DNA from: Escherichia phage EJP2
DNA: 64,000 nt
Direction: 5' to 3' (one strand)
Sequence record: OQ411014.1
Shown piece after piece: positions 518-14,833 of this stretch. The notes beneath the pieces are model-generated. The model was not told the origin of the DNA and did no database searches. It worked only from the letters and a program-made list of their open reading frames with translations. Each line of letters begins with the position of its first letter. Position 1 is the first letter of the stretch. Made by a program: the position numbers and the translations under genes.

Positions 518-720
518 AATATTTCTTACACTTCGAAGATGATGATGAGTTTATTGTGGTACGTGAATTTACATTACCACATAAACCACAGAAAGGTGAT
601 TTCATTACAATTGGAACTGAATACCATTCAGTACAATATGTAGTTCAAGAAGTCGATACGTTCCTTGATATTGAAAGTGCAGCGTATAGTGTGAATGTTC
701 ATTTGGAAAAACGAAAATAA
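511..720 (+). CDS. hypothetical small protein
   Basis: 69-aa ORF; start overlaps end of upstream ORF. Confidence 0.45.
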   Translation: MLKYFLHFEDDDEFIVVREFTLPHKPQKGDFITIGTEYHSVQYVVQEVDTFLDIESAAYSVNVHLEKRK

Positions 721-1067
721 TGAAAATTGTATCAGTACTGGCTGGGTTGATTTTATGTAGTACTCAAGTATTGGCTAGTACAGTCGATACTGATGTGAAT
801 TATAAGAAAGAGTACAAGACTGGTATTGCATCTGACCCATCATATTGTATTGGTTATGCGGATGCAAAGATGTTCCAGACAGGGAATCAGCAGTACTACG
901 AATGGATGAAACAATGGTACGAGGATCAAACTAGTAATACTGATTTGGTCATGAAGCCATTCAATCATCGTTCGTACGTTAACGGTACTGAAATGAATAA
1001 TAACGATTTGACCGTTGAATGTGTAATGGAATTTGATTTCATTATCACTGACGAGGTACAACAGTGA
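720..1067 (+). CDS. putative secreted protein
   Basis: 115 aa; N-terminal signal-like segment MKIVSVLAGLILCSTQVLA; ATGA overlap with upstream stop. Confidence 0.6.
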   Translation: MKIVSVLAGLILCSTQVLASTVDTDVNYKKEYKTGIASDPSYCIGYADAKMFQTGNQQYYEWMKQWYEDQTSNTDLVMKPFNHRSYVNGTEMNNNDLTVECVMEFDFIITDEVQQ

Positions 1068-1073
1068 GGCTCT

Positions 1074-1538
1074 ATGAGTGTATTTGATTTGGTATCTAGT
1101 ATTTCGTGGATTGAAGTAATAATCTTTATTGTACTTAGTGCAGTACTGTTCATGTTCATGTTCAACGATGATTACACGTACTGTAAAAAGATTCATAAAG
1201 CATGTGCAGAACCAGTATGGAAATCATTTTGGTATATGCAGTTCATCCCGAATAAGTTCATACGACCGTTTGAAAGCTGGTGTGATGTTTCAACCAGAAC
1301 AGTCCCCACGATTGAAACGATTTTATCTCTCTATGAAGATAATCGAGATTCGTTGATTATCAAACTTATACCTACATTAGATGATGATACAATCGAATTC
1401 ATATGCAAGAGATTACCATCCGTATCAATTAGGGTTAGTAACAAAATGGTTGTGAACTACAGGACTGAGCATGTGATTCCACCACGAGTTCTTGTGGGTT
1501 TGTTGAATATGTACGAAATAGAACGAAAGAAAATCTAG
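1074..1538 (+). CDS. hypothetical membrane-anchored protein
   Basis: 154 aa; single N-terminal hydrophobic helix. Confidence 0.55.
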   Translation: MSVFDLVSSISWIEVIIFIVLSAVLFMFMFNDDYTYCKKIHKACAEPVWKSFWYMQFIPNKFIRPFESWCDVSTRTVPTIETILSLYEDNRDSLIIKLIPTLDDDTIEFICKRLPSVSIRVSNKMVVNYRTEHVIPPRVLVGLLNMYEIERKKI

Positions 1539-1595
1539 ACATATACTTTGAGTGTGTTATAATACAGTCATCAAATAACAAGAAGAGAGGTTTAT

Positions 1596-2045
1596 ATGAA
1601 CGTACTAGGAACGAAGTTCAGTACTGCAATGGGTGCACGTAATGGTTGGTTTACTATCAATGAAGTACTGGACGATACTTTCAAACATTACACGTTCAAT
1701 CAGTGCCTAAAACTCAAAGTAACTCCAGAAACTAAAGATGACATGAACTTCATCGAGTGGGTTATGTATTGGGAAGGTTCACCCGTTGCAGTGCATTTAC
1801 ACGTTCTAACTACAGTATTGAGTACTGGTTATGTGAAAGCAACTGTCATCTCTAAGCGTCATGTATTCACTGATGAAATTGGTGAATTCCCAGGTAAACA
1901 AGCAATCATTGATGGTTACATGATTGATGGGAAATTCATGGATAAGAAGGGTGCAGAGGCATATCATACTCGTAAGCTAATGAACGGGAACTTCCGTCCA
2001 GCAGCTAAGATCCCTGATGCAGTCATTCAACCTAAACGTAAGTAA
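1596..2045 (+). CDS. hypothetical protein
   Basis: 149 aa; RBS gagagg upstream of ATG. Confidence 0.6.
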   Translation: MNVLGTKFSTAMGARNGWFTINEVLDDTFKHYTFNQCLKLKVTPETKDDMNFIEWVMYWEGSPVAVHLHVLTTVLSTGYVKATVISKRHVFTDEIGEFPGKQAIIDGYMIDGKFMDKKGAEAYHTRKLMNGNFRPAAKIPDAVIQPKRK

Positions 2046-2094
2046 TGTAGTCCCTCCTTAACTGGGGGGATTTAAACACATAAGGACAAAATAA

Positions 2095-2520
2095 ATGTTC
2101 AAATATTGTTTCCGTACGTATGTAGTACTGTTCTTAGTACCAGCACTGTACTTGATTACTGCACAACTTAGTAAAATCTTCGAAAGTCTTAGCTTTTTGA
2201 ATTTTACTGCACCAGAACAGTACAAAATTCTATTGACAATAATGTACGTTTTTTCTTTCATATTGTCAGTACTGATCATTTTCAATTCAGGATGTGACTA
2301 CCGAGAGTTTCATATTTTCAGAAACTTCAAGAACGTAACGTACTCAAAGTTCTGGAGTTATATACTCGCAGTCCCTGTTGTATTGAATTTCCATATTGAG
2401 GGCTTCTCGTTCACAACTTTTATGCTCTTCATTGAACCAATTGCAATCTATATGTACATCCATCAACATAACCGATTCGTATTGAGTCATAATCTAGTCC
2501 ACGTAGAGGAACAACCATGA
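2095..2520 (+). CDS. hypothetical integral membrane protein
   Basis: 141 aa; several hydrophobic helices. Confidence 0.55.
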   Translation: MFKYCFRTYVVLFLVPALYLITAQLSKIFESLSFLNFTAPEQYKILLTIMYVFSFILSVLIIFNSGCDYREFHIFRNFKNVTYSKFWSYILAVPVVLNFHIEGFSFTTFMLFIEPIAIYMYIHQHNRFVLSHNLVHVEEQP

Positions 2521-3014
2521 ATACGTATATCAGTGGGTTTTACAAGTACTACCTATCGTTCATAACTATATTTGCTATTCTGTTATTGAATGAAACAGAA
2601 CAATTTGGATCAAAATTCCTATCAGAAGGACTAGGAATCTTCCTTCAGGTTATCTTTGCACTGATGGCTGCTATATCAATGCCAGTACTGATCTATGGTA
2701 TTCATCTTGTTGCGAGCGATGACCAGGATAGTAAGGACTCGTGTATCCGTGAGTACTGCCAAGCAGCAAAATACAGTACTATAAGTTCTATGATACCGTT
2801 TAGTCTAATTATTGTGTCCATCGCTATGTTCCAATGGAATCTGTGGTTCTTGGGTACGTTTGGATTTATTATGGGTTGTAGTATGTACGTGTATACTAAA
2901 GTACTATACAGAGGTGAGAAACTATTCACTGAAATGGAAGCCCGTAAAGGAACCAAAGCACCAGTTCAACGAGAAGAGCGAGATTATTTCGCACCAGACG
3001 ATGAGTTACCTTGA
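2517..3014 (+). CDS. hypothetical integral membrane protein
   Basis: 165 aa; about four hydrophobic segments; 4-nt overlap with upstream gene. Confidence 0.55.
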   Translation: MNTYISGFYKYYLSFITIFAILLLNETEQFGSKFLSEGLGIFLQVIFALMAAISMPVLIYGIHLVASDDQDSKDSCIREYCQAAKYSTISSMIPFSLIIVSIAMFQWNLWFLGTFGFIMGCSMYVYTKVLYRGEKLFTEMEARKGTKAPVQREERDYFAPDDELP

Positions 3015-3074
3015 CACGTACCTGAAGAGTAGCTATAATACTTTCATTGAAGCGAAACTAACAAAGGAAACATA

Positions 3075-3329
3075 ATGGATACCGTACAGATTGAATCTTT
3101 GACTTCACTTGTTCTTGATAATGTAAAAGCTGAAGAAGAAATTTCAGTACAAATCAAAGCAGAGTATCAGTGCATTACTGAAAAGCTCCAAGATGCGAAG
3201 TACACTGTAACGAAAGAAATTGAAGAGCATTATAAGAACATTGAACGTCTGTTCCGTGTCAAGCAAGAACACATTGTTCGTCAGAATAACGCTAAGACTG
3301 CAATCAATAAACTTCTGGGAATCGCATAA
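3075..3329 (+). CDS. hypothetical protein
   Basis: 84 aa; RBS aaggaaa. Confidence 0.55.
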   Translation: MDTVQIESLTSLVLDNVKAEEEISVQIKAEYQCITEKLQDAKYTVTKEIEEHYKNIERLFRVKQEHIVRQNNAKTAINKLLGIA

Positions 3330-3808
3330 TGAAAAACGTACAACAATACATTCAGAACTTCACCGCATATCCAGTATCAGTAATGTTCGGACATATCGAT
3401 ACACCTACTCCTAAGCAGAAGAAAGCGGAGAAACGTGTAGCAGAAATCTGTGAAGAACTGTATCGTTTTGATTGTACAGTACTATCAGATGTGCGAGCAG
3501 CATTCCGCGAGTTAGATGTTCTTATCTCCTTGAGTGATGATAAGTTCCGCATCAAGCAAGTGCGTCTAACTCGTATGACTGGTCGTTTGGCATATTTTGT
3601 TGACAAAGCGGTTGTAATGCTCGATAATATGCACAAGAAAGACCAGCAACTTCAGCAGTACTGGCAACCGCTGTCAATGAAAGCTAAAGTACTGAAGGAT
3701 GAAATCAAATCATTCCTTATCCAGTACGATACTTCAGTTGATAAGATTGTATTACTGTCTGAATTTGACAATGCATACAAAGAAGCCCAAGAGGAAGATA
3801 AGAAATGA
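3329..3808 (+). CDS. hypothetical protein
   Basis: 159 aa; TAATG-type coupling with upstream gene. Confidence 0.6.
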   Translation: MKNVQQYIQNFTAYPVSVMFGHIDTPTPKQKKAEKRVAEICEELYRFDCTVLSDVRAAFRELDVLISLSDDKFRIKQVRLTRMTGRLAYFVDKAVVMLDNMHKKDQQLQQYWQPLSMKAKVLKDEIKSFLIQYDTSVDKIVLLSEFDNAYKEAQEEDKK

Positions 3809-4305
3809 CAACTGTTTTCGTGAGTAAAGAATTAGGAATTGCTATTACTGACTCACGAGCCACGTTTCAAGAGTCCAGGAAGTTTCTTGGGCTTTTTAAC
3901 TTGACTCCATTACCATCGTATAAAGTTGTGAATCAAAAGGCTTTGTATGTTCATGACCGTTTATTCTTAGCATGTGGAAGTGTAGATACTATTGATAAAG
4001 TATTGCAATATTTCATCGACGGTACTAAGTTCAAGATAAACAAGAAAACTCCAAGCTGTGAGTGTCTTCTTCTTGGTAAAGAATACGGTGTACACTTGTA
4101 CGTGTGGAATGGTAAGATTCATAAGAAGACTATCTTCTTGGCGTATAATTTTGTACACTTCATGGGGTCTGGTAGTTCTGCCCTACTCAGAAAGTACTAC
4201 AAGACTTTAGAACGTAATACACCAGATGAAGTTATTGATATTTTCAAGACTGTACATTTGGATGATAGCTTCACTGACGATAACGTAAATTTATACAGAA
4301 TCTAG
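3805..4305 (+). CDS. hypothetical protein
   Basis: 166 aa; ATGA overlap with upstream gene. Confidence 0.6.
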   Translation: MTTVFVSKELGIAITDSRATFQESRKFLGLFNLTPLPSYKVVNQKALYVHDRLFLACGSVDTIDKVLQYFIDGTKFKINKKTPSCECLLLGKEYGVHLYVWNGKIHKKTIFLAYNFVHFMGSGSSALLRKYYKTLERNTPDEVIDIFKTVHLDDSFTDDNVNLYRI

Positions 4306-4334
4306 TTGACAGTCTAAAAGAGATATCATATAAT
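4306..4334 (+). promoter_or_regulatory. sigma70-type promoter
   Basis: TTGACA-N17-TATAAT (ttgacagtctaaaagagatatcatataat). Confidence 0.65.
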
Positions 4335-4364
4335 CATTGCATACCACAACGAGAGAGAAACAAA

Positions 4365-4511
4365 ATGAGTACATTCATCGTAGAATATGTTCTGACTGGT
4401 CAAAGCATCTGGCAGGTACAAATGGTAAAAGCATGTAATAAAGAGCAAGCCCAGAGCACGCTCAAGAAAATGATTTCTGGTGTAGTAACCACCAAAGCAT
4501 ACCCAGCATAA
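4365..4511 (+). CDS. hypothetical small protein (48 aa), below ORF-track cutoff
   Basis: ATG with RBS gagagag upstream, flanked by promoter 4306-4334 and terminator 4526-4554; preferred over the antisense 4326-4562 ORF. Confidence 0.4.
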   Translation: MSTFIVEYVLTGQSIWQVQMVKACNKEQAQSTLKKMISGVVTTKAYPA

Positions 4512-4525
4512 TTTAGAGCTATAAT

Positions 4526-4554
4526 GAATCCGCTCTGTGCGGATTCTTTTTTTT
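4526..4554 (+). terminator. rho-independent terminator
   Basis: hairpin gaatccgc-tctgt-gcggattc followed by T8. Confidence 0.7.
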
Positions 4555-4573
4555 AATATCAAAGGAGAAAGTA

Positions 4574-5566
4574 ATGACTGTAAAACAACTCAATCTAGAA
4601 TCTATTCAAGACGATATCATGGATGAATGTTTTGTAAATGAAAACAATACGTTCGAGCGTATTAGTGAACAGTCACATGACAGTACTGAAGAAGTAGAAG
4701 AAAGTACTGATGACGTAGGTTCTTTCAAGACTTACAACACATCTAGCGTTTTACCAGAAGGTGAGACGAATGAATCTATTATTCGTTTAATCCGTGACGG
4801 TATCAATGTGAAGCGTAACATTGACCTTATCGTACGTAACAACGTAGGCTTAGTATATAGCCAAGCACGTCAGTGTACTTGTAATATCCCATTCCAAGAT
4901 AAAGCACAGTACGCTTTTGAAGGTCTAATGCGTGCAATCCATCGTTATGATGTGAATCAGAATATTCTTTTCAGTACTTACGCTACTGTGTCTATTCGCC
5001 AAACACTCTATAACTTTGGTAATGATGAAGTTCGTCTAATCAGTATTCCACGTCACTTGTCAGTGGATAACATCAAGATTCAGAACTACATTGAGAAGCA
5101 TCGTTCTAAGTTCGGTCGTACCCCAAGTGAAGATGAAATCAGTACTGCTACTGGCATCAAGTTATCCGCAGTGAAACGTGTAGTGCAGTACATGAACAGT
5201 AAGCCAATGAGTTTCGATACTCCAATGGGTTCTGACAGTACTGAAAACGATATGAGCTTAGTGGATGTAATCCCAGGAACTTCCAATGATTACACACTAA
5301 GTGCAGATACAGTTCAGAAAGCACCACTAGATGTAATTGCATTGGTCATGTCTGAACTACCAGAAGAAGAGCAGTTGCTGATCAATAAGATTCACGGCTT
5401 GAATGGACATGAAGAAAGTACTTTTATTGCTCTAGAGACTGCTGGATTGGTAGATGCGAAGGGTAAGAAGCTAACTAACCGTTGCACTATTCATCGTCGT
5501 TACAATGCAATACTGGATAAGATTCGTAATATTCTAAAAGCACGTGACATTTCATTCGATGACTGA
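4574..5566 (+). CDS. sigma-70 family RNA polymerase sigma factor (phage-encoded)
   Basis: 330 aa; region-2-like FSTYATVSIRQTLYNF (compare FSTYATWWIRQ of sigma70) and a C-terminal HTH-like region-4 segment; acidic N-terminus. Confidence 0.65.
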   Translation: MTVKQLNLESIQDDIMDECFVNENNTFERISEQSHDSTEEVEESTDDVGSFKTYNTSSVLPEGETNESIIRLIRDGINVKRNIDLIVRNNVGLVYSQARQCTCNIPFQDKAQYAFEGLMRAIHRYDVNQNILFSTYATVSIRQTLYNFGNDEVRLISIPRHLSVDNIKIQNYIEKHRSKFGRTPSEDEISTATGIKLSAVKRVVQYMNSKPMSFDTPMGSDSTENDMSLVDVIPGTSNDYTLSADTVQKAPLDVIALVMSELPEEEQLLINKIHGLNGHEESTFIALETAGLVDAKGKKLTNRCTIHRRYNAILDKIRNILKARDISFDD

Positions 5567-5726
5567 TATGATTCGTTACAAGGCAAACAAAGTACAAGGA
5601 ACTGCTGTTGTAGTTTTCTTGTACTGGACTGAGAATCCGGTCTATGTTCTGGCAGAGAACAGTACTGTATCGCTGTCGGAGTTCATTGATATAGCAATTG
5701 AAGAATTCAAATCATTAGAGGAATAA
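5544..5726 (+). CDS. hypothetical small protein
   Basis: 60-aa ORF overlapping 3' end of sigma gene; start uncertain (internal ATG at 5568). Confidence 0.35.
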   Translation: MTFHSMTDMIRYKANKVQGTAVVVFLYWTENPVYVLAENSTVSLSEFIDIAIEEFKSLEE

Positions 5727-5730
5727 TACT

Positions 5731-6364: not shown

Positions 6365-6805
6365 ATGGCTTGGATTCACAGCAATCATTCTGAACTGAAC
6401 AATTTCGATATCTTTGCATTCGTGAACATGCAAGAGAAGATCTTCATCAAAGGACGTCTCTGCACGCTCTCTGACGGCTCACGGGCCATCTGTAACATGA
6501 ACAACAAGGGTGAAGTACTGGATATCGTTGCTCTTCCTGCGTGGGCTACTGTGCAGCCTGAAGAGGCACTTATGCGTCTACTCTTTGAAGAGATTGGTAA
6601 ACTTCCAGGTACTGATGTGGAGAACAAACTCTTCAACATCAAACACTCCAAGTACAGTGCTGACCAATTATCTGGTTTAACTGATACAGTACTGAAAGAA
6701 GTTGTAAGTAATCAATGTAACGTAATTCTTAAGTACGTTCCTGAACTGGAACTGACTGAAGAAATGCTAGTGGAATTTGACATCAACGCTAAGGGTTCTC
6801 TATGA
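6365..6805 (+). CDS. hypothetical protein
   Basis: track ORF 6296-6805 begins at a TTG inside the terminator; first ATG with RBS gaggataa is at 6365 (146 aa). Confidence 0.55.
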   Translation: MAWIHSNHSELNNFDIFAFVNMQEKIFIKGRLCTLSDGSRAICNMNNKGEVLDIVALPAWATVQPEEALMRLLFEEIGKLPGTDVENKLFNIKHSKYSADQLSGLTDTVLKEVVSNQCNVILKYVPELELTEEMLVEFDINAKGSL

Positions 6806-7164
6806 GACTAATCCTGTTACTGATTTTGTTAGTAACTGCACAGACGATACCATCTGATTCATATATCGATATAAATCCAGCACGTGAGTTCATTATTTGT
6901 ACAGACAGAGTAGACAGTACTAAAAAGATTGAAGTCCTCTTCGATTCAAGTACTCCAGAATATGTAGTGACGAACAAAGTACAGTACAAATTCATTTCTC
7001 ACGAAGTTATTGGGGATGTAGATGTACTTCAATATAAGTTCGGTTCAAAGACTATGAATTTTGAATTTATTATGCAAGGTGATAAAGTATCTTCTATTCG
7101 ATTGGAAGTACTTGGTGCTATCCCTGGTATGGAATTCATGGATGGGGAGTGTAAACTGCTATGA
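6802..7164 (+). CDS. putative secreted protein
   Basis: 120 aa; N-terminal hydrophobic segment MRLILLLILLVTAQT. Confidence 0.55.
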   Translation: MRLILLLILLVTAQTIPSDSYIDINPAREFIICTDRVDSTKKIEVLFDSSTPEYVVTNKVQYKFISHEVIGDVDVLQYKFGSKTMNFEFIMQGDKVSSIRLEVLGAIPGMEFMDGECKLL

Positions 7165-7505
7165 TTTCAGTACTGAATAGTATTAGTATTGTTGTTATGA
7201 TTTTAGCCTGTACCTACGCTATCCTAGCTGGGGTGCTCATCTTCTACAAGAAGACTAAGTTCTTGGGGTGGTTACAGATAAGTAAAACTGGCTATTGTTT
7301 TGTGTACGGAATAAGTGCCTTTTGTATATACAGGGATTTATTTTTAGGAGTACTTCCTCCTGATTTCAATGGGTACAACTTTAGTGCAGTGTTCTTATTG
7401 TTTTATATTGTACTTATTGTGCTTGGTCTTTGTATACCGTATGTACTTATAGTTGGTGTTTCAAAGGTACTTGAGTACCGTAAACGTATTCCTGATGAGG
7501 ATTGA
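7161..7505 (+). CDS. hypothetical integral membrane protein
   Basis: 114 aa; three hydrophobic helices. Confidence 0.55.
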   Translation: MISVLNSISIVVMILACTYAILAGVLIFYKKTKFLGWLQISKTGYCFVYGISAFCIYRDLFLGVLPPDFNGYNFSAVFLLFYIVLIVLGLCIPYVLIVGVSKVLEYRKRIPDED

Positions 7506-7508
7506 TAA

Positions 7509-7838
7509 ATGAAGATGGAAGACTTAGTAGAACTATTACAGCCGTACGCTACAGTACTATTTTTGATTGCTTCAATGTATACTGTTGTAACTCTAGTACT
7601 TGGATTCTTCAAGTATCGAACACTAGCTAAACGCTTAGACGAGAACTTATGGCTCTCTGTTCCTAGTATCTTTAGTGTAGCTATTAGTATTGCAAACTAT
7701 TTTATTGAAGATCGTATGTTCGCTGCTATTATGTTATTATTTGTTTTGGTTGGGGTAACATTTGTAGGTACTATCTATGCAATGTGTAAAGGATTTGTGT
7801 ACGTTCGTTCCAAGATACCAGATCCAGAACAAGAATAA
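7509..7838 (+). CDS. hypothetical integral membrane protein
   Basis: 109 aa; three hydrophobic helices. Confidence 0.55.
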   Translation: MKMEDLVELLQPYATVLFLIASMYTVVTLVLGFFKYRTLAKRLDENLWLSVPSIFSVAISIANYFIEDRMFAAIMLLFVLVGVTFVGTIYAMCKGFVYVRSKIPDPEQE

Positions 7839-7846: not shown

Positions 7847-7876
7847 AATGCTCACTTCGGTGAGCATTTTTTTTAT
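7847..7876 (+). terminator. rho-independent terminator
   Basis: hairpin aatgctcac-ttcg-gtgagcatt followed by T8. Confidence 0.7.
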
Positions 7877-7880: not shown

Positions 7881-7889
7881 TGATATAAT
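7881..7889 (+). promoter_or_regulatory. extended -10 promoter candidate
   Basis: TG-a-TATAAT immediately after the terminator; a second TATAAT lies 6 nt downstream. Confidence 0.4.
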
Positions 7890-8469: not shown

Positions 8470-8718
8470 ATGAAGATTTTCAAATTTATTGCTGCTTCAG
8501 TACTAGCACTTTCCCTAAGTGCGTGTGATCGCGTAACAGAAGAACGTTCGCATGAGTTCGCACTTCCTTCTGAGTTAGTTCAAGCAGGATGTAAGATTTA
8601 TCGTATGCGAGCTGAAAGTGGTGTAACTCTATATGCTTTGTATTGTCCTAATTCCACAACCACAACAAGCTACACCAGTGGTAAACAAACTCATCATGTC
8701 ACTACGTACAGTAACTAA
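8470..8718 (+). CDS. putative lipoprotein
   Basis: 82 aa; signal peptide with lipobox LSLSAC; RBS aaggag. Confidence 0.6.
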   Translation: MKIFKFIAASVLALSLSACDRVTEERSHEFALPSELVQAGCKIYRMRAESGVTLYALYCPNSTTTTSYTSGKQTHHVTTYSN

Positions 8719-9526: not shown

Positions 9527-9537
9527 AGAAAAAAGAG

Positions 9538-9565: not shown

Positions 9566-9616
9566 TACTACATCAAGAACGAACTAACTAAAACACTCAA
9601 ACATAGGATTAAAAAT

Positions 9617-9775
9617 ATGCCATATCTTCTGATTATTATCATTTCTTTCGGTGCAGGTATCTACAGTGGTAAAGTGATGTTTGAAAAAGAAATCACTGCT
9701 GGTGCTTGTTTGGACAACAGTACTAAGTCCATCGGAGAGAAGTATGATGATATTATGAAAATCATCAAAGAATAA
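9617..9775 (+). CDS. hypothetical small membrane protein (52 aa)
   Basis: ATG downstream of promoter 9538-9565; hydrophobic N-terminus; not in ORF track; preferred over antisense ORF 9584-9790. Confidence 0.4.
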   Translation: MPYLLIIIISFGAGIYSGKVMFEKEITAGACLDNSTKSIGEKYDDIMKIIKE

Positions 9776-9802
9776 TTCTACACTATACAAAAGGAAACAA
9801 CT

Positions 9803-10126
9803 ATGAAAGCTCTACGTAACATTATCGCTTATGCAGTAATCTCTATGGGTATGACCTTTGCAGCACATGCAAACAGTTCTATCCTATGTGAATCGGAAAA
9901 TGGCAAACAGCACGTTATGAAACATAACAGTACTGTTATGACTGTTCACGGTGAAAACTTCAACTTTGAACAAACTGGCACTCTCAAGAGCGGTGCGGAT
10001 GTATTTGTTTACTGGAACCAAGAGCGTACTAAACTATTGGCGGTAACTTCTGCTGATAAGCAAACTATTGTTTATCAAATCATGGATAAGCGTCAACGTG
10101 TACTTGACATGGGTACTTGTAACTAA
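9803..10126 (+). CDS. putative secreted protein
   Basis: 107 aa; signal peptide MKALRNIIAYAVISMGMTFAAHA; RBS aaggaaa. Confidence 0.65.
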   Translation: MKALRNIIAYAVISMGMTFAAHANSSILCESENGKQHVMKHNSTVMTVHGENFNFEQTGTLKSGADVFVYWNQERTKLLAVTSADKQTIVYQIMDKRQRVLDMGTCN

Positions 10127-10186
10127 TATACTTTATGGGTGCATTAATATTGATGCACCTAAAACAACTAGCTCTGGAGTTTAGAT

Positions 10187-10492
10187 ATGATTGGTGTAAA
10201 TTGGAATATCATTGTATTATGTGTACCGTTGTTATTCATGACTATTGCAATGCTTGTCCGAATGTGGAAGCCCAGCATCACTGAAAAGGATATCGGATTC
10301 AATCCGCTGATTCAGCTACTCGACAATGTTTTATGTATGTGGGTAGTACTGGCATTCGTTTGGCTCTATGTATTCAATGAAGATTATCTAAACGCCAGAG
10401 CAGCACTGTATTCAATGATTGCACTTGGGTGGTTGTGGTTGACGTGCTTCACTATTCAAACTACAGTAAAGTTCTTTCAAAATAAGGGTTGA
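10187..10492 (+). CDS. hypothetical integral membrane protein
   Basis: 101 aa; three hydrophobic helices; stop codon inside terminator stem. Confidence 0.6.
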   Translation: MIGVNWNIIVLCVPLLFMTIAMLVRMWKPSITEKDIGFNPLIQLLDNVLCMWVVLAFVWLYVFNEDYLNARAALYSMIALGWLWLTCFTIQTTVKFFQNKG

Positions 10493-10511
10493 CTTCGGTC
10501 AACCTTTTTTG
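10485..10511 (+). terminator. rho-independent terminator (GGTTGAC-TTCG cassette family)
   Basis: agggttgac-ttcg-gtcaaccttttttg. Confidence 0.7.
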
Positions 10512-10557
10512 AGCCTAATTTTGGGAACTTGATCTAGATCAATGTACAGGAGTAGTA

Positions 10558-10884
10558 ATGAAAAAGATATTTTTCAGCACTTTAGTAGTACTGAGTTTGT
10601 TGTCTTTCAATGTTAGTGCTTTAGAGTGCATAGATGATGCCGATAATCATTACATCATTGAGCCAGGAGAAGAAGATTCAGTACTGATCAATAACACAGA
10701 GTTTTATAAACTCAATACGGAGGAATTCAAAGATACAGAGACAACCATTCATGATACTTGGTTACAGGATGAATCTGGAACCATTGCATTACTATCAGTA
10801 ATAACAACAAAGAAATCAAAAGAAGTTCAAACTAAACTGCACTTCGTCCAGGGAGATGAAATGTATAAGGGGATTTGTAAGTGA
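10558..10884 (+). CDS. putative secreted protein
   Basis: 108 aa; signal peptide MKKIFFSTLVVLSLLSFNVSA. Confidence 0.6.
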   Translation: MKKIFFSTLVVLSLLSFNVSALECIDDADNHYIIEPGEEDSVLINNTEFYKLNTEEFKDTETTIHDTWLQDESGTIALLSVITTKKSKEVQTKLHFVQGDEMYKGICK

Positions 10885-11186
10885 ATACAACACGCGTCAT
10901 AAACTATGTCATGGCAGACATGAAACAAGCGTACGAAGATGCATACGTACGTTACTTAGGGAAAGAGGAAGTTATTGCGACGCGAGTATACCTTGCATAT
11001 GAGATGAGTTGTTCTACACACCCTTCACTGAATAGCAAAGAAAACGCTAAGTTATTTCGTAAAGTAATTATTGACCACTACCGTAAAAACGGGTATCATA
11101 TCCCTAGTGTTATGAAACTCTTCATGAATGTGATTCCTTCTAAGTATTCAGTTCATGGGGACTACGAGCCATTAACCTTAGAGTGA
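10881..11186 (+). CDS. hypothetical protein
   Basis: 101 aa; 4-nt overlap with upstream gene. Confidence 0.6.
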   Translation: MNTTRVINYVMADMKQAYEDAYVRYLGKEEVIATRVYLAYEMSCSTHPSLNSKENAKLFRKVIIDHYRKNGYHIPSVMKLFMNVIPSKYSVHGDYEPLTLE

Positions 11187-11192
11187 TAAACC

Positions 11193-11525
11193 ATGCAACT
11201 AAGAGAAGTACCATTAGTCCTGCCAGTACTGGCAAATTGTGTAGTACTGTTGATATTTGTATACGCATTCTTTGAATGTTTGTGTCACTTATATGTAACA
11301 GGAAGATACAGAAACAAGTTCTTTGAGTACTCAAGAGTAGACGTAATTGCTTCAACATATTGTACGTTACTGTCGAGTACTTTGGTATGTGCTTTCTGTG
11401 TTTATATATTACCGGACACATATTTCGCATTGACTATGTGGGCTATGATATCTAATGGTGCTGCTTTGATGTACCTGATATACATCGTGGACTACTGGAA
11501 TCTAAAAAGAACTAAACGTATATGA
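11193..11525 (+). CDS. hypothetical integral membrane protein
   Basis: 110 aa; hydrophobic helices. Confidence 0.55.
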   Translation: MQLREVPLVLPVLANCVVLLIFVYAFFECLCHLYVTGRYRNKFFEYSRVDVIASTYCTLLSSTLVCAFCVYILPDTYFALTMWAMISNGAALMYLIYIVDYWNLKRTKRI

Positions 11526-11647
11526 TTTTATTCTTTATTTTATGTAGTACTGTAGTGTATACTCTCTTCGCTCCAAAGAAATCTACTATACAGATCTTGA
11601 GCGAAGAGATTAATAAATCCAAATCTAAATCCAATAAGGAGAAGTAA

Positions 11648-11899
11648 ATGTCACTACTTGCTTTTGTAGTACAAATGCTCATTGCAGTTTTAGTCGTACT
11701 TCCAGTACTGATCGCGTTATTCCGTGCTAAACAGGGTGTGTTCTTCGCAACAATGGGCTTGACATTTGTTATCCCAGTTGGACACCAAATCATCTTTGGT
11801 TCTTACGCAAACATGAGCAATACTGTACTAATTGTATATGGTGTATGTTATGTTACAGCACTAGCCCTCGCAATCTTCACTGAAGCAGATAAAGGATAA
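11648..11899 (+). CDS. hypothetical integral membrane protein
   Basis: 83 aa; two or three hydrophobic helices; RBS aaggagaag. Confidence 0.55.
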   Translation: MSLLAFVVQMLIAVLVVLPVLIALFRAKQGVFFATMGLTFVIPVGHQIIFGSYANMSNTVLIVYGVCYVTALALAIFTEADKG

Positions 11900-11903
11900 G
11901 AAC

Positions 11904-12407
11904 ATGCAACTAGAAAATTGGTTAGGATGGACTATCGTAGTAATATGTGTAGTACTGATGTATGCCCCACTAGTGCTGGTATTCGTCAAAACTAAAACAA
12001 TCTCAATGCTGCTTCTGTCAATGGCAATCATTGCTGGTGCAGTAGGTGCACTCTTCGGTCAAGCATCTCCTAAAATCAGTGCAGTATTGATGGTAATGAT
12101 TTGGGTAGTGATGTTGTTCGTTTCTCTCAAACTCATTTGGGCTGAGAAGGCTCCAATGTTTGAAGCTGATGAAAAGGGTAAGCGATGGTTCCTGTACTGC
12201 TTGAGTCATGATTTACGTGTACGCATTACTGACGGAAAGATTGAGTACTATCTAGGTGAAGTAGTAACGCTTGACGAAATTCTAAAAGTGTATAAACTAT
12301 CAGAACAGAATCATAATGCATTACTTGACCAGATTGAAGCTGAAGAGTTCGCAGAACATCGTGAACAAATCAAGAAGGACTTAGCTGATTTGCGTTGTGC
12401 AAACTAA
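11904..12407 (+). CDS. hypothetical membrane-anchored protein
   Basis: 167 aa; N-terminal hydrophobic helices, charged C-terminal half. Confidence 0.6.
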   Translation: MQLENWLGWTIVVICVVLMYAPLVLVFVKTKTISMLLLSMAIIAGAVGALFGQASPKISAVLMVMIWVVMLFVSLKLIWAEKAPMFEADEKGKRWFLYCLSHDLRVRITDGKIEYYLGEVVTLDEILKVYKLSEQNHNALLDQIEAEEFAEHREQIKKDLADLRCAN

Positions 12408-12413
12408 ACACTA

Positions 12414-12437
12414 GGGAACCGATGGGTTCCCTTTATT
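12414..12437 (+). terminator. rho-independent terminator
   Basis: gggaacc-gatg-ggttccc followed by tttatt. Confidence 0.65.
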
Positions 12438-12461
12438 AATCCAACACACATAGAGAACAAA

Positions 12462-12761
12462 ATGAATTACATCTTATCTGTCATCTTCTTCAGTACTCTA
12501 ATTGCGTATTCAGTCAATTCTTATAAAGAGAACATTGCACCAGATATGTATGAGTGTACAATAAATGTACAGTACGATACAGTACTGAAGACTAAGAAAG
12601 ATACGTTCACATCCACACGTCTGAACGAGATTGTAGACCACGGTGGTGCAATGCTGGGTGTTCATGTAGAAGATATGAAAGAAGATTCAGATTCATATAA
12701 AGGTGTAGTACTGAAATATGAAGACGTAGTTGGTGGTAGTGTAGTGTGTAACAGAATATAA
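12462..12761 (+). CDS. putative secreted protein
   Basis: 99 aa; signal-like N-terminus. Confidence 0.55.
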   Translation: MNYILSVIFFSTLIAYSVNSYKENIAPDMYECTINVQYDTVLKTKKDTFTSTRLNEIVDHGGAMLGVHVEDMKEDSDSYKGVVLKYEDVVGGSVVCNRI

Positions 12762-12776
12762 AAAGAGGTACGAGTG

Positions 12777-12950
12777 ATGAAAAAATGTACACTTTATGTA
12801 TTGGCTTTTAGTATCTTTGCTGTACTGACATATTTTTCATTTTCTATCAAAGAAAGTTCTTCCCTTTGGGTATTCGTTGTGTTAGAATTCTTTTCGTTGG
12901 CAGTGACAATGTTGTTCATCGAACTATATTGTCGTTACATTAAAACTTAA
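12777..12950 (+). CDS. hypothetical small membrane protein (57 aa)
   Basis: ATG after RBS aagagg; two hydrophobic helices; not in ORF track. Confidence 0.35.
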   Translation: MKKCTLYVLAFSIFAVLTYFSFSIKESSSLWVFVVLEFFSLAVTMLFIELYCRYIKT

Positions 12951-12964
12951 ATGAGATACTAACC

Positions 12965-13600
12965 ATGACTAAACAAGATATTTTCAAAACTGTAATCAAT
13001 GCTCTTCGGTCTGAAGAAGTTCGTTGTATGATGGAATACAACATCAATAAAGCCACTGACGCTATCGTTCCTGTTATTGAAGCTGCTGGCCTGGTGTTCG
13101 TTGGTATTGGTATGTATTCTGTCGTTGTGGAGCATCCTAAGTACCCTGGACGTGTGTTTAAGGTTAGTACTTCACGTTGGGATGGTTTCCGTGAGTACGC
13201 TAAGTACTGCAAAGATAACAGCAACAAACCATTTGTACCTGCTATCTATAGTGCTGAAGTTAAAGGTAACTTCGCATGGTATGAGATGGACAAATACTTC
13301 TCAATCATGAAGGCTGATGAATCTGATTTCGTAAGCAACAAAGCAGATGAAATGTATTCCTTTGCTAATGCTGGTCAGTACGGTTCATCTCTTCGTGAAG
13401 AGATGGATGTACAACAGGATCGTATGGATATCTACAACTTCGCTAAGGAGTTAGAAAGTGCATACGGTTCGCGTTTCACGCTGGACATTCACACTGGCAA
13501 TATCATGATGGATGTATTCGGTAACTTCTTTATCACTGACCCACTTGCTGGTGATTTACGCCGCGAGATTCCAGTACTGGAAGAAGATCCAGTATTCTAA
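12965..13600 (+). CDS. hypothetical protein with protein-kinase-like motifs
   Basis: 211 aa; Gly-loop-like GIGMYSV, Lys in VFKV ~15 aa later, catalytic-loop-like DIHTGNIMMD, DFG-like ITDP; unverified. Confidence 0.55.
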   Translation: MTKQDIFKTVINALRSEEVRCMMEYNINKATDAIVPVIEAAGLVFVGIGMYSVVVEHPKYPGRVFKVSTSRWDGFREYAKYCKDNSNKPFVPAIYSAEVKGNFAWYEMDKYFSIMKADESDFVSNKADEMYSFANAGQYGSSLREEMDVQQDRMDIYNFAKELESAYGSRFTLDIHTGNIMMDVFGNFFITDPLAGDLRREIPVLEEDPVF

Positions 13601-13609
13601 GGAGATATA

Positions 13610-13903
13610 ATGAAAGGTGCATTATTAGTAATTTTTGGAATGATTTTGATTTATTTTAGTGTTGACAAGTACACACAAAAGTCTGTACAATCAGTACCAG
13701 AAGCCCAAGAGACTTCACCAGTTCAGGAGCCACCAGCACCGGAACCTAAGTCCCAAGAGCAAGTACAAAACGAATACTACGCACATCACGTGTATCGTTT
13801 TAAAGATGACAAGTACAAAGTTATTTGCTGGCGTATCATGAATATGAACCATGCAGGTTTATCTTGTCTCCCTGAACATTTGGTAAACGAAAGGACCGAA
13901 TAA
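13610..13903 (+). CDS. hypothetical membrane-anchored, Pro/Gln-rich protein
   Basis: 97 aa; N-terminal TM helix then PEAQETSPVQEPPAPEP. Confidence 0.55.
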   Translation: MKGALLVIFGMILIYFSVDKYTQKSVQSVPEAQETSPVQEPPAPEPKSQEQVQNEYYAHHVYRFKDDKYKVICWRIMNMNHAGLSCLPEHLVNERTE

Positions 13904-14235
13904 TGAATATCATTTATCCTAACACAAGCACCAATTTTGATGACGTTGTAAGTGTTCTGAACAATAACAGTACTGTAACAATTCAGTTTCAGTTATCACC
14001 AAGTACTGGTCTTCTTGTGAAGAAAGAAGTATCCAAATACGTTGGCTATGAAAACCAAACTGTAATTGAAGTTTCGTTCTATGAAGATGATGCATCTGTG
14101 TTCGGTCGCATGTCATCTGGTACTGAAATTCATGCAGCAGATGAAGCACTATTAGTAGTGCGTGCACTAAAGGAACGCTTGGCTTCAACGTCACCAAGCG
14201 ATGTCAGTTCTATCTCTCTAGCTCGCGTGTGGTAA
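13903..14235 (+). CDS. hypothetical protein
   Basis: 110 aa; TAATG coupling. Confidence 0.55.
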   Translation: MNIIYPNTSTNFDDVVSVLNNNSTVTIQFQLSPSTGLLVKKEVSKYVGYENQTVIEVSFYEDDASVFGRMSSGTEIHAADEALLVVRALKERLASTSPSDVSSISLARVW

Positions 14236-14543
14236 ACGAAATGAAACAGGTTATTATTGCAACGTTTGTATTTTTACTATTCACTCCAGTAACTTATGCT
14301 GGTATCAATCTGGATTGTGTACTCACTAATTCATCTGGTGCAAAGATGCAGATCAATACCAGACAGACCTTTGGTGAATCTTATATTGAGTCAGATGCTT
14401 ATATCAACTTCAAAGCAGTGGACTTTGTTGAAGGCTCGTTCATCAACTCCAACATGGTACTGGATAAGATTACTCTCAAGGGAGTGTTCAGTACTCAAAA
14501 GGATAACGGTAAAACCCATCACGCAATGGTAGATTGTAACTAA
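14229..14543 (+). CDS. putative secreted protein
   Basis: 104 aa; signal peptide ...FTPVTYA. Confidence 0.55.
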   Translation: MVNEMKQVIIATFVFLLFTPVTYAGINLDCVLTNSSGAKMQINTRQTFGESYIESDAYINFKAVDFVEGSFINSNMVLDKITLKGVFSTQKDNGKTHHAMVDCN

Positions 14544-14638
14544 GAGGAAAGCTAAGTTATGACGTACTTATCTATTGCAGTTGTTGTATTTTTAGTTTTA
14601 GTCGTTTGTGCATTTGGGTATCTCATGACTAAAGGTGA

Positions 14639-14833
14639 TTGAATGTGAAATACATATTAGTCCTACTAGTATTATTCACTACATGCACAAATGCTAGTGC
14701 ATTGAAGGAGCAGAAATTCTTTGTATCCTTCTTTGCACCAGTACAAACGAAGCACATTAAATGGACGTATAATTCAAATCTACTAGAGTTGAATGAGCAC
14801 AGGATTGGATTCGTTATCAATTACGTGTGGTGA
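14639..14833 (+). CDS. putative secreted small protein
   Basis: 64 aa; signal-like N-terminus. Confidence 0.45.
   Translation: MNVKYILVLLVLFTTCTNASALKEQKFFVSFFAPVQTKHIKWTYNSNLLELNEHRIGFVINYVW

Follow-up and report, generated by a model that had tools for sequence, protein, structure and literature searches.

A dense block of predicted secreted, lipid-anchored and membrane proteins in the putative early region of EJP2, a Rak2-like jumbo phage

Escherichia phage EJP2 is a Rak2-like jumbo phage with E. coli as its host. In the window, by which we mean the whole stretch of 64,000 nucleotides of its record (OQ411014.1) that was analysed, 35 genes by ORF count lie between positions 720 and 14833, all on the plus strand, and an unexpected share of them appears to encode proteins that leave the cytoplasm. 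Is this excess genuine? What kinds of protein make it up? When would they be produced, and what would they do in the envelope? The original prediction named 20 such ORFs, all of which were found in place on the plus strand; an extra candidate, 11522-11647 (41 aa), raises the total to 21.

Export signals and transmembrane helices were assigned gene by gene with home-made heuristic rules. The lenient set accepts a Kyte-Doolittle (KD) value of at least 1.6 in a 19-residue window, a crude -3/-1 signal-peptide rule or a lipobox; the strict set accepts KD of at least 2.2, or K/R in the n-region with an h-region and A/G/S at -1, or a complete lipobox. The lenient rules pick out 21/35 genes in the block vs 19/87 in the remainder of the window (Fisher p=9e-5), with a noise level of 21% positives among random proteins and 37% among non-genic ORFs. 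Under the strict rules the figures are 16/35 (46%) vs 12/87 (p=3e-4); as nulls, random proteins with the composition of the window now pass at 2% and non-genic ORFs at 10% (binomial p=6e-8). Five block members are positive under the lenient rules only, and the positive share of the remainder is 14-22% (12-19/87, strict to lenient). When genes of at least 40 aa are counted, the densest 21-gene and 35-gene runs in the whole window are exactly the block originally proposed, and 6802-14833 holds 12 strict or 17 lenient positives among 21 consecutive genes. In phage T4 the same classifier caught Sp, Imm, rI, holin t, Ac and both spanins and rejected rIII; it scored 8.6% of genes genome-wide, with at most 6 positives per 21 or 35 consecutive ORFs. 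For the relative CBB the genome-wide share is about 10% (50 membrane proteins and 4 lipoproteins in 554 ORFs; PMC5259590). The high density that had been claimed, measured here as 16-21 of 35, is thus non-random against the remainder of the window, T4 and the nulls, and about half to 60% of these 35 small genes are predicted to encode secreted, lipid-anchored or membrane proteins.

The predicted secreted proteins are as follows:

720..1067, plus strand: secreted, 115 aa; signal peptide MKIVSVLAGLILCSTQVLA followed by ST, both rule sets; PHROG 36332
6802..7164, plus strand: secreted, 120 aa; signal peptide MRLILLLILLVTA followed by QT, strict and lenient rules
9803..10126, plus strand: secreted, 107 aa; signal peptide ending AHA, followed by NS
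10558..10884, plus strand: secreted, 108 aa; signal peptide ending VSA, followed by LE
12462..12761, plus strand: probable secreted, 99 aa; lenient rules only, n-region without K/R; terminal Cys pair
14241..14543, plus strand: secreted, 100 aa from ATG; signal peptide ending TYA, followed by GI; terminal Cys pair
14639..14833, plus strand: small secreted, 64 aa, TTG start; signal peptide ending ASA, followed by LK

Two of the starts given by the ORF list were moved, since ATG 14241 is likelier than the GTG that opens the 14229 ORF, and ATG 6365 is the likelier start of the 6296 ORF. Exactly two Cys residues occur in 8/9 exported domains (P=4e-5) vs 5/40 similar-sized cytoplasmic proteins, and their positions are kept in homologues. 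The mature part of 720..1067 has two Cys, and its homologue in phage Hallingskeid is 64.5% identical; 6802..7164 has one near the mature N-terminus and a C-terminal G-E-C, and shares signal peptide and Cys pattern with its Hallingskeid homologue. The 12462..12761 protein has a homologue in phage Munch with a signal peptide and matching Cys pattern. The 14639..14833 gene differs between genomes and has a 9-nt indel that stays in frame. The 10558..10884 protein is identical to EJP02_444 and has a Hallingskeid homologue 46.7% identical.

AF2 models 9803..10126 as an eight-stranded beta-barrel with Cys on the first and last strands (mature-part pLDDT ~85), and 10558..10884 with the same eight-strand layout and terminal Cys pair; mature-part pLDDT is ~85-90 for the two, the second model being confident in one of five runs. 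The MliC/PliC lysozyme inhibitors of the periplasm and other small lipocalin-like (calycin) barrels are, like these models, exported eight-stranded antiparallel barrels of 80-100 aa with a disulfide. However, fold searches with the 9803 model returned generic lipocalin-like barrels only, the 50 best PDB matches of either model include no MliC/PliC structure (best E-values 0.02-0.07), and a Pfam MliC search of the block proteins gave no match. Among the BFVD neighbours of the barrels are a protein of phage Moabite labelled 'putative lysozyme inhibitor' (E=0.057) and a 'lipoprotein' from a phage (TM 0.63, E=1e-3). The resemblance of the modelled barrels to MliC/PliC is at the level of fold class only.

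The block has one predicted lipoprotein:

8470..8718, plus strand: lipoprotein, 82 aa; lipobox L-S-A-C, Asp at +2, two further Cys

By the Lol-avoidance rule of E. coli, Asp at +2 retains a lipoprotein in the inner membrane, where 8470 would accordingly be expected, unlike an outer-membrane receptor blocker such as Llp of phage T5. Its family is PHROG 902 / DUF4884, with 143 cluster representatives, 140 of them of at most 140 aa; 128/140 have a lipobox-like motif, and 106/128 of these exactly two further Cys. Like Llp, 8470 is a small lipoprotein (63-aa mature) of a lytic phage with an internal Cys pair, and its copy in fEgEco12 is annotated 'lytic conversion lipoprotein'. A 50-sequence profile, however, aligns Llp (PDB 8a60_B) over the signal peptide only (E=8.7), so that homology to Llp is unsupported. 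Llp blocks FhuA, T5's own receptor (PMC9586334); the receptor used by EJP2 involves the outer core of LPS (PMC10213699).

The remaining envelope candidates are predicted membrane or membrane-anchored proteins:

1074..1538, plus strand: membrane-anchored, 154 aa; one N-terminal transmembrane helix, residues 12-30, KD 2.62
2095..2520, plus strand: multi-transmembrane, 141 aa; KD 2.78 segment; Hallingskeid homologue annotated 'membrane protein'
2517..3014, plus strand: multi-transmembrane, 165 aa, charged C-terminal tail; strict and lenient rules
7161..7505, plus strand: two to three transmembrane helices, 114 aa; KD 2.75 and 2.91; paralogue of 7509 and 17565
7509..7838, plus strand: two to three transmembrane helices, 109 aa; hydropathy
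9617..9775, plus strand: small protein, 52 aa, N-terminal hydrophobic anchor; KD 1.87, lenient only
10187..10492, plus strand: three transmembrane helices, 101 aa; strict and lenient rules
11193..11525, plus strand: two to three transmembrane helices, 110 aa; Hallingskeid homologue E=2e-10; identical in six genomes
11522..11647, plus strand: 41 aa, N-terminal hydrophobic segment, Lys-rich tail; hydropathy; weakest member
11648..11899, plus strand: three transmembrane helices, 83 aa; KD 2.97
11904..12407, plus strand: three transmembrane helices, 167 aa, soluble C-terminal domain of ~90 aa; strict and lenient rules
12777..12950, plus strand: two transmembrane helices, 57 aa; strict and lenient rules
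13610..13903, plus strand: N-terminally anchored, 97 aa; KD 1.8, lenient only

The N-terminal helix of 1074..1538 is also present in its Hallingskeid homologue, and the K/R residues that follow it place the C-terminal domain probably in the cytoplasm. The 13610..13903 protein continues from its anchor into a Pro-rich linker and a domain with two Cys, and 9617..9775 has homologues in Hallingskeid (61.5% identical, tblastn) and Munch (41.5%). For 2517..3014 none was found in the comparison genomes L001 and L002, and 7509..7838 is hypervariable, with three allele types among otherwise 99% identical EJP2-like genomes. A positive-inside test over the transmembrane proteins was marginal (P=0.07).

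When would these genes be expressed? The following elements and neighbours bear on this:

1536-1563, plus strand: near-consensus sigma-70 promoter, at or between gene boundaries
3011..3039, plus strand: perfect sigma-70 promoter, TTGACA-17-TATAAT, in an intergenic gap
4306-4334 and 9538-9565, plus strand: perfect sigma-70 promoters, at or between gene boundaries
10104-10132, plus strand: near-consensus sigma-70 promoter, straddling the end of 9803-10126
7847..7868, plus strand: intrinsic terminator, 9-bp stem and T run, closing the upstream operon
4574..5566, plus strand: phage sigma-70-family factor; Pfam Sigma70_r2 and r3, PHROG 351
12965..13600, plus strand: T7 gp0.7-like protein kinase; PHROG 15752, Pfam Phage_T7_kinase (precomputed), tblastn matches

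Terminators separate the operons of the block. The sigma factor is 60% identical to a Hallingskeid protein and homologous to that of CBB. A hydrophobic stretch in 12965-13600 that could pass for a transmembrane helix is a false positive, as it belongs to the soluble T7-type kinase. The syntenic region of CBB (CBB_390-546), which includes the sigma factor, was proposed to hold early host-takeover genes, and RpoD-like promoters are concentrated there (PMC5259590); like the EJP2 block it combines a sigma factor with short hypothetical ORFs, in the same Rak2-like lineage. From the sigma-70 promoters and this relative, we infer that the block is an early host-takeover region driven by host RNA polymerase. 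The absence of core replication and morphogenesis genes was correctly predicted, but 'devoted' to the envelope was too strong a description, as the block also holds the sigma factor, the kinase, a gene for a structured RNA and several soluble proteins that are conserved. The CBB paper tallies membrane proteins genome-wide and does not describe a regional concentration, two-Cys exported proteins or the RNA element (PMC5259590), and the EJP2 paper mentions none of the three.

The RNA element is embedded in the block and is separate from the protein finding:

7881..7889, plus strand: extended -10 promoter TGaTATAAT before the RNA element, by sequence reading
about 7929-8366, plus strand: structured RNA, ~440 nt, by covariation; within the 630-bp gap 7838-8470

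It is the sole part of 1-15000 that matches other phages at the DNA level, and its promoter is mostly conserved in an alignment with Hallingskeid and Munch. Copies of it occur in 71 phage records, at 4-5 per record, and every Rak2-like phage carries that number. Its 17 helices comprise 77 pairs, 32 of them with compensatory changes; 97% of cells are paired vs 36-46% in slid controls, and the observed values were reached in 0/500 shuffles. No Rfam family matches it, and it looks more novel than the envelope-protein block.

How constant is the protein block among relatives? Comparison across related genomes, the check proposed with the original prediction, gave a divided answer. Homologues that retain the signal peptide or transmembrane helices exist in Hallingskeid or Munch for 13/21 envelope genes, 10 of the 13 being in syntenic order in Hallingskeid, and 11/21 are without a Hallingskeid homologue. 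'Accessory' is half right, since the 13 are conserved with the same targeting signal in Erwinia or Salmonella phages. Identity to Hallingskeid is ~21-65% (mostly ~30%) for envelope genes and 22-82% (mostly >40%) for soluble genes; judged from these sequences, the envelope genes are the faster-evolving class of the two.

What, then, would the proteins do? The reading we favour, and hold to be rather likely, is that about 21 small, lineage-restricted, fast-evolving early gene products leave the cytoplasm and probably modify or guard the host envelope. The more specific functions originally suggested, superinfection exclusion, receptor masking and lysis timing, found no homology support: searches of the block envelope proteins against Pfam, PHROGs, NCBIfam and PDB matched no characterised exclusion, lysis or inhibitor family, including Imm, Spackle, Llp, Cor, MliC/PliC, holins and spanins, so that an envelope-directed role is argued by analogy. 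Conservation of 13/21 genes across host genera also implies that some serve a general step of the infection cycle rather than strain-specific competition, which speaks against the favoured reading.

That conservation fits a tentative alternative, in which the proteins inhibit or hijack envelope machines of the host for the phage's own cycle, or act as mild membrane toxins for shut-off; targets could be transporters, the divisome, the proton motive force or membrane-bound abortive-infection and defence sensors. The neighbouring sigma factor and gp0.7-like kinase are host-takeover genes, and the charge pattern of 1074, which turns its soluble domain toward the cytoplasm, counts against a purely envelope-directed role. 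Hok toxins bear a weak resemblance to the 11193 N-terminus, but at 19 bits the match is far under the family cut-off of 73. No evidence indicates a host target, it is hard to see how the two-Cys periplasmic barrels would reach cytoplasmic ones, and this alternative overlaps with envelope modification, the target alone differing.

That the block is a cassette for lysis or its timing, built of holins, antiholins and spanins, is improbable. Small proteins with one to three transmembrane helices, the lipoprotein 8470 and 13610 with its N-terminal anchor and periplasmic domain superficially resemble holins, o-spanin and i-spanin, and the T4 spanins and holin fall in the same classifier classes, but the block has no endolysin or muramidase domain, the endolysin of relatives is elsewhere (e.g., CBB_187), the promoters belong to the early sigma-70 class rather than to a late one, 8470 is neither embedded in nor adjoining a gene for a transmembrane protein with a coiled-coil periplasmic domain, and 21 genes far exceed a cassette's needs. 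Membrane-associated assembly factors, such as inner-membrane head-assembly initiators like T4 gp40, or other virion-related proteins are more improbable still: by PHROG, the gene that follows the block (14936-16456) encodes a structural protein of the virion, but none of the envelope genes has a match among structural or assembly PHROGs, the promoters are early-type, and the proteins are too many, small and variable for conserved morphogenesis.

Least credible is an artefact in which T-rich small ORFs of an AT-rich genome, many of them non-genes, mimic hydrophobic proteins, for although the lenient classifier is positive on 37% of non-genic ORFs, several of the ORFs fail a gene caller that was trained on the codon usage of long ORFs and public gene callers skip 11193, 11522 and 14639, the strict rules give 46% vs 2-10% in the nulls, and ribosome-binding sites, purifying selection, intact frames, other-genus homologues and the two-Cys pattern speak for genes. 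Shine-Dalgarno motifs occur at 27/38 starts vs 8.5% of random positions; pN/pS across six 99%-identical metagenomic genomes is 0.23 for envelope and 0.13 for soluble genes; 18/21 envelope genes are publicly called in all or nearly all of six contigs, and the frame of the three skipped ones is intact in six related genomes. This evidence shows that the envelope genes are real, carry export or membrane signals and are under purifying selection, and that their arrangement is conserved in related phages.

An outline of how the block would modify or guard the envelope is as follows. Host RNA polymerase would transcribe it early, the envelope genes being interleaved with those for the sigma factor and gp0.7-type kinase, and about 21 envelope products would leave the cytoplasm soon after infection. 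They would fall into (i) periplasmic proteins exported by Sec, about eight in number and 80-105 aa long, which mostly carry one Cys close to the start of the mature part and another among the final residues, at least two of these proteins being predicted to fold as eight-stranded beta-barrels that a DsbA-made disulfide would clamp shut; (ii) a single lipoprotein of inner-membrane type, from a widespread family of small lipoproteins; and (iii) about twelve inner-membrane proteins with one to three transmembrane helices, several in a ~110-aa family expanded elsewhere in the genome. By analogy, these proteins may bind or block envelope components, and thereby may block further phage entry, shield the infected cell from outside lysis, sense superinfection or alter host membrane machines. 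Such effects are known from Imm, Spackle and rI of T4 and from Llp of T5.

In T4, too, imm, sp, rI, ac and 52.1-ndd.6 are small early genes for signal-peptide, lipoprotein-like or transmembrane proteins, either scattered or in clusters among host-takeover genes; its record places Sp in the periplasm, has Imm act through a change in the membrane, and gives the products of motA.1, 52.1, ac and ndd.2-ndd.6 as predicted proteins of the membrane, periplasm or outer membrane. Spackle is made early and, in the periplasm, inhibits the gp5 lysozyme of an incoming phage (PMC7677548). The T4 set has no sequence or family match to the EJP2 block proteins, and its cluster peptides are of 26-50 aa, whereas the EJP2 proteins are of 50-170 aa with folded periplasmic domains; under the same rules, T4 reaches at most 6/21 consecutive genes against 12-17/21 (at least 40 aa) in EJP2. 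The block is thus an unusually dense case of the small early envelope proteins already known in T4.

All of the ORFs listed in the original prediction were present when the window was checked, and the enrichment of envelope proteins that it had claimed for 720-14833 (the block, plus strand) was borne out: by strict rules, 16 of the 35 genes in the block, against 12/87 elsewhere in the window, encode a protein with a signal peptide, lipobox or transmembrane (TM) helix (p = 3e-4). Genes are named here by their start coordinates. The curated set consists of 38 plus-strand genes in 11-16456, 35 of which lie within 720-14833, and the public gene calls for six near-identical metagenomic contigs match it, minus 11193, 11522 and 14639; a codon-usage gene caller was dropped because of its bias against membrane genes. 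Envelope calls were made with two home-written heuristic rule sets, one lenient and one strict, with the following results.

Envelope-protein calls in the block and in the rest of the window
Lenient rules: block 21/35; rest of window 19/87; null rates 21% (random proteins) and 37% (non-genic ORFs); Fisher p = 9e-5
Strict rules: block 16/35; rest of window 12/87; null rates 2% (random proteins) and 10% (non-genic ORFs); Fisher p = 3e-4, binomial p = 6e-8

The lenient count is unconvincing by itself because its null rates are high; the strict set confirms it. The densest run of 35 genes in the window is 720-14833, exactly the block, and the densest run of 21 genes is 6802-14833 (12 strict and 17 lenient positives). 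As an outside yardstick, the identical classifier code was run on 150 kb of phage T4, where it picked up Sp, Imm, rI, holin t, Ac and both spanins and rejected rIII; 8.6% of T4 ORFs were positive overall, with at most 6 positives in any 21 or 35 consecutive ORFs. In the related jumbo phage CBB, 50 membrane proteins and 4 lipoproteins have been counted among 554 ORFs (PMC5259590). Given the T4 maximum and overall rate and the CBB counts, the density of envelope genes in the block is real and unusual.

The 10558-10884 protein and the lipoprotein at 8470-8718 are 100% identical to EJP02_444 and EJP02_439, respectively, of Escherichia phage EJP2 (contig of 349,185 bp), a published jumbo myovirus infecting antibiotic-resistant E. 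coli, the description of which is silent on membrane proteins and on the region of the block (PMC10213699). At the DNA level, the first 15 kb match the phage collection searched over only ~440 bp. At the protein level, sequence comparison places EJP2 in the Rak2-like jumbo group: the sigma factor is 60% identical to its counterpart in Erwinia phage Hallingskeid and 36-42% identical to those in Munch, BF, GAP32, CBB and several E. coli jumbo phages, and the kinase is 43-56% identical to its counterparts in 121Q, PBECO4, Munch and Hallingskeid. These two proteins and the gene that follows the block are as follows.

4574-5566, plus strand: sigma-70-family factor (Pfam r2 and r3)
12965-13600, plus strand: T7 gp0.7-like kinase (PHROG 15752; Pfam Phage_T7_kinase)
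From 14936, directly after the block: virion structural protein (PHROG)

The block is envelope-rich but, contrary to the original proposal, not devoted to the envelope alone: the sigma factor, the kinase and several conserved soluble proteins belonging to PHROGs with no assigned function (16473, 3576, 24804, 10011 and 37817) also lie inside it. A TM helix called in the kinase was rejected as a false positive in a hydrophobic strand region.

Several lines of evidence show that the small genes are real. A Shine-Dalgarno sequence stands at the right spacing before 27 of 38 starts, compared with 8.5% of positions chosen at random. The six EJP2-like contigs, 99.0-99.7% identical, contain 346 variable sites, and pN/pS is 0.23 for envelope genes and 0.13 for soluble genes, so both classes are under purifying selection; reading frames are intact in all six contigs, even where 14639 has an in-frame 9-nt indel. 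Homologues of 13 of the 21 envelope genes occur in Hallingskeid or in Salmonella phage Munch and are themselves scored as signal-peptide or TM proteins, 10 of them in syntenic order in Hallingskeid. Finally, exactly two Cys residues are found in 8/9 exported domains (Poisson-binomial P = 4e-5), compared with 5/40 non-exported proteins of similar size. For 6802, 9803, 10558, 12462 and 14241 the pair is terminal, with the first Cys close to the start of the mature protein and the second among its last 2-5 residues; the Hallingskeid or Munch homologues keep these positions. Judged by sequence, the two-Cys pattern is a signature of periplasmic, disulfide-bonded proteins. A reading of these genes as chance ORFs is rejected by the four independent lines, namely Shine-Dalgarno sequences, purifying selection, homologues with the same targeting and the two-Cys pattern. 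The longest-ORF start is probably wrong in two cases: for 6296-6805, PHROG 37817 and the public calls start at ATG 6365 (146 aa), and for 14229-14543, ATG 14241 (MKQ..., 100 aa) is the most likely start.

The order of genes in the block is kept in Hallingskeid and Munch. Perfect sigma-70 consensus promoters are found on the plus strand at 3011, 4306 and 9538 and near-perfect ones at 1536 and 10104, all of them intergenic with the sole exception of 10104, and intrinsic terminators lie at 4526, 6291, 7847, 12413 and 14857. In CBB, RpoD-like promoters are concentrated in a short-ORF region that holds the homologous sigma factor, and its authors proposed that region as early, host-takeover genes (PMC5259590). 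The features of this Rak2-like early region are found in EJP2, with a sigma factor 36-60% identical across Rak2-like phages and consensus promoters before short ORFs. From the promoters and terminators, taken with the CBB region, we infer that the block would be read as several short operons transcribed by host RNA polymerase, and the same promoters and the CBB parallel point to early timing.

By heuristic Sec rules (a positive n-region, an uncharged h-region of 8-16 residues, small residues at -3/-1 and a hydrophilic mature part), 720, 6802, 9803, 10558 and 14639 pass at the strict level; 14241, with its MKQ start, shows the same features by reading, outside the strict scoring, and 12462, whose n-region is without K/R, passes the lenient rules only. 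The two-Cys pattern supports predicted export of the signal-peptide proteins independently of these rules. For 9803, 10558 and the lipoprotein 8470, a word-indexed search of 5.8 billion proteins returned nothing but EJP2-like copies, so that deep alignments were impossible. With three-sequence alignments, AlphaFold2 gave 8-stranded all-beta models for 9803 and 10558 with nearly the same strand layout and pLDDT of ~85-90 over the mature parts, the model of 10558 being confident in 1/5 runs only. Among the top 50 Foldseek matches in the PDB, both models met only generic small barrels (E>=0.02), which include lipocalin-like decarboxylases, NanoLuc, avidin and designed barrels. As modelled, 9803 and 10558 fall into the lipocalin-like class as small barrels of the periplasm, and the two models suggest a common fold for the secreted two-Cys proteins. 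A single sequence superfamily of five such proteins was rejected: BLAST revealed no paralogy among them, and hhalign gave one weak full-length match, between 10558 and 6802 (E=0.004).

Among viral models (BFVD), the nearest to 9803 is a phage 'lipoprotein' (TM 0.63, E=1e-3), and a 'putative lysozyme inhibitor' ranks 16th (E=0.057). An MliC/PliC identity, an idea that came from the Cys pattern together with an 'SGA' motif, finds no support in Pfam and PDB fold searches, and the Pfam MliC domain has no match at E<=10 in six secreted proteins scanned singly; a role as MliC-type lysozyme inhibitors may serve as a lead for the modelled barrels, not as a result. A PDB sequence search with the 9803 family gave immunoglobulin matches, which are due to chance.

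The lipoprotein 8470 carries the lipobox L-S-A-C at residues 16-19, after MKIFK and an h-region (the criterion was [LVI][ASTVI][GAS]C ending a signal peptide). It belongs to PHROG 902 (E=1e-9) and Pfam DUF4884 (precomputed PF16225 match), and an exhaustive HMMER search of its family gave 143 cluster representatives at E<=1e-3. Among representatives of <=140 aa, 128 out of 140 bear a lipobox-like motif, exactly two further Cys residues are found in 106 of these 128, and the lipobox Cys is invariant in a 50-sequence alignment. Carriers of the family, by tblastn, are 121Q-like jumbo phages, Cronobacter and Pectobacterium phages of 140-150 kb, and Aeh1; one relative's copy is annotated as 'lytic conversion lipoprotein'. 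Homology to T5 Llp was rejected at the sequence level: the family profile meets PDB 8a60_B at positions 1-19 only (E=8.7), so that its likeness to the solved Llp is confined to the signal peptide; phmmer with the mature 8470 sequence gave no match. Asp at +2 keeps E. coli lipoproteins in the inner membrane, and since 8470 has this residue, inner-membrane retention is predicted.

Of the TM proteins, 7161, 7509 and 17565 are paralogues, and they are like seven 3-TM proteins encoded at 28547-31292 in size and layout. The latter locus is a second envelope-rich cluster on the plus strand, with seven consecutive proteins of ~100-140 aa (five of 112-118 aa), mostly with 3 TM helices and interrupted solely by one 42-aa ORF; its proteins are weakly related to one another and to 17565, 7161 and 7509, with corresponding arrays at L001 34995-39518 in Hallingskeid and at L002 24344-25870 in Munch. 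A variation hotspot coincides with 7509-7838, which has 85 variable sites (44 synonymous and 41 non-synonymous) in three allele types among EJP2-like genomes otherwise 99% identical, with the changes falling mainly at the N-terminus and in the last TM helix; this pattern suggests allele exchange or diversifying pressure. A test of the positive-inside rule on the TM proteins was marginal (P=0.07). Residues 1-34 of 11193-11525 score 19.1 bits (E=8.5e-4) against the Hok toxin model NCBIfam NF007279, far under its cut-off of 73, so 11193 was rejected as a Hok-type membrane toxin; its likeness to Hok-family type I toxins is probably compositional.

What do these proteins do? In Pfam, PHROGs and NCBIfam, the named families among the block proteins are those of the sigma factor, the kinase and the virion protein only, and the rest fall in uncharacterised families; the envelope proteins match no characterised family there, nor in the PDB for the two searched in it. 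None of the 38 proteins matches the T4 Imm or Spackle families (Pfam, PHROG), and the protein that Hallingskeid's record annotates as 'superinfection immunity protein' is without a homologue in the window. The reading with most support is that, shortly after infection, the phage would send varied small proteins into the periplasm and the inner membrane. These proteins may, by analogy, bind envelope components and thereby might block the entry of further phages, guard against lysis from without, sense superinfection or tune host membrane functions. Analogues of such roles are T4 Imm and Spackle (PMC7677548 and the annotation of the T4 record), T4 rI and T5 Llp (PMC9586334). It is by analogy only that envelope targets may be ascribed to the block proteins, and the main rival differs in target only: the proteins would act on host physiology or host defence systems, not on rival phages. 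Roles in assembly are unlikely for the envelope proteins. A lysis cassette of the holin/spanin kind is also unlikely, as the block is without a muramidase or lysozyme domain, its promoters are of the sigma-70 early type, no spanin-like partner encloses or adjoins the lipoprotein gene and the genes are too many.

Delivery of small proteins to the envelope early in infection might be extended as follows, in a proposal that we regard as tentative and rather doubtful. Rak2-like phages would possess a conserved yet fast-diversifying envelope arsenal built from two lineage-specific architectures that act as interchangeable binders: a disulfide-clamped 8-stranded periplasmic beta-barrel, with at least five sequence-unrelated versions in the block, and a ~110-aa 3-TM protein, with at least ten per genome, including the allele-swapping 7509. 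By blocking envelope machines of the host or the apparatus with which rival phages enter, the binders would form the periplasmic equivalent of anti-defence gene islands, which act in the cytoplasm.

The block also contains a candidate structured RNA. Within the block, conservation at the DNA level is confined to a gap of 630 bp without genes, 7838-8470, which is 87% identical to Hallingskeid and ~78-84% identical to 121Q-like and Munch-like phages. The gap holds the following features.

7847-7868, plus strand: terminator before the RNA element
7881-7889, plus strand: extended -10 promoter (TGaTATAAT) before the RNA element
~7929-8366 (core), plus strand: structured RNA candidate of ~440 nt, from covariation

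Nine aligned sequences yield 77 pairs arranged in 17 helices, and at 32 of these pairs compensatory double changes occur. Paired cells make up 97.2% of the total, compared with 36-46% when the partners are slid by 1-3 columns, and 0/500 shuffles reach the observed values. Many pairs are G-U, and therefore the plus strand is the folded strand. Differences between EJP2-like genomes within the element cluster in one hairpin at 8046-8074, helix 6 of the consensus, which also varies by compensatory changes between distant phages. Seven copies have no match in Rfam 15, either at the gathering threshold or at E<=10, and a likeness to RNase P J11/12 seen by eye gains no support from the Rfam RNase P models. 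The element is often mis-annotated as tiny hypothetical proteins: the Hallingskeid region bears four of these on the minus strand, and the gap is unannotated in the curated Munch record.

The element was found at 275 places in 71 phage records, all Rak2-like, with 4-5 diverged copies per genome. It also occurs once each in two E. coli chromosomes (the copy is 70% identical), and is therefore not confined to jumbo phages. The copy of strain LR-29-1 (L015 9001-9545, that is, NZ_AP027515.1 3478972-3479516) lies in a 1.4-kb unannotated gap of a ~10-kb island adjoining ffs, which carries an integrase fragment, IS3 and recombinase, DUF4326, DUF488 and dual-OB genes. Plasmids gave no match, and an exact 23-nt core pattern found nothing in IMG/VR. 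Comparison of neighbours revealed no protein partner conserved beside the element; 8721 shows no relationship to the gene that follows the element in E. coli and was found in Hallingskeid only.

Two other regions of the window were noted. An ORF-poor region of higher GC (0.41) at 51200-53350 shares ~1.6 kb with 121Q-like phages at 79% DNA identity, with 5-16 matching places per genome, and matches the very start of several 121Q-like records, one of which is annotated 'Direct Terminal Repeats'; it is probably a genome-end or terminal-repeat boundary region. On the minus strand, fourteen tandem genes for proteins of ~300-465 aa occupy 33386-50396 and one more lies at 19676-20854; RCC1-like repeat (beta-propeller) domains are found in three of four sampled, and the relatives' copies are annotated as 'DNA condensation protein' or 'regulator of chromosome condensation'.

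T4 has an annotated run of predicted membrane, periplasmic and outer-membrane mini-proteins in its early region (motA.1, 52.1, ac and ndd.2 to ndd.6). In contrast to T4, the EJP2 block has two to three times the maximum density by the same rules, its exported proteins are larger and folded, with a recurring terminal-disulfide barrel predicted, and Rak2-like phages from three host genera share the conserved arrangement just upstream of the kinase. Genes of this kind are familiar, the density is unusual and the concept is unchanged; we found no published description of the block's envelope-gene density, terminal-disulfide barrels or conserved arrangement in the literature. Few phage genes are as poorly understood as those for small early membrane and periplasmic proteins, and the studied cases (T4 Imm, Spackle and rI; T5 Llp) decide who infects an infected cell and when lysis comes. 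The block offers ~21 candidates from a therapeutic-candidate E. coli phage, in one ~14-kb region that is deletable in principle and in which natural allele variation is already visible. It is thus a handy test bed for new exclusion or envelope-targeting mechanisms, and it bears on the possible exclusion of other phages by EJP2 within a cocktail; the structured RNA inside it may be the more important lead.
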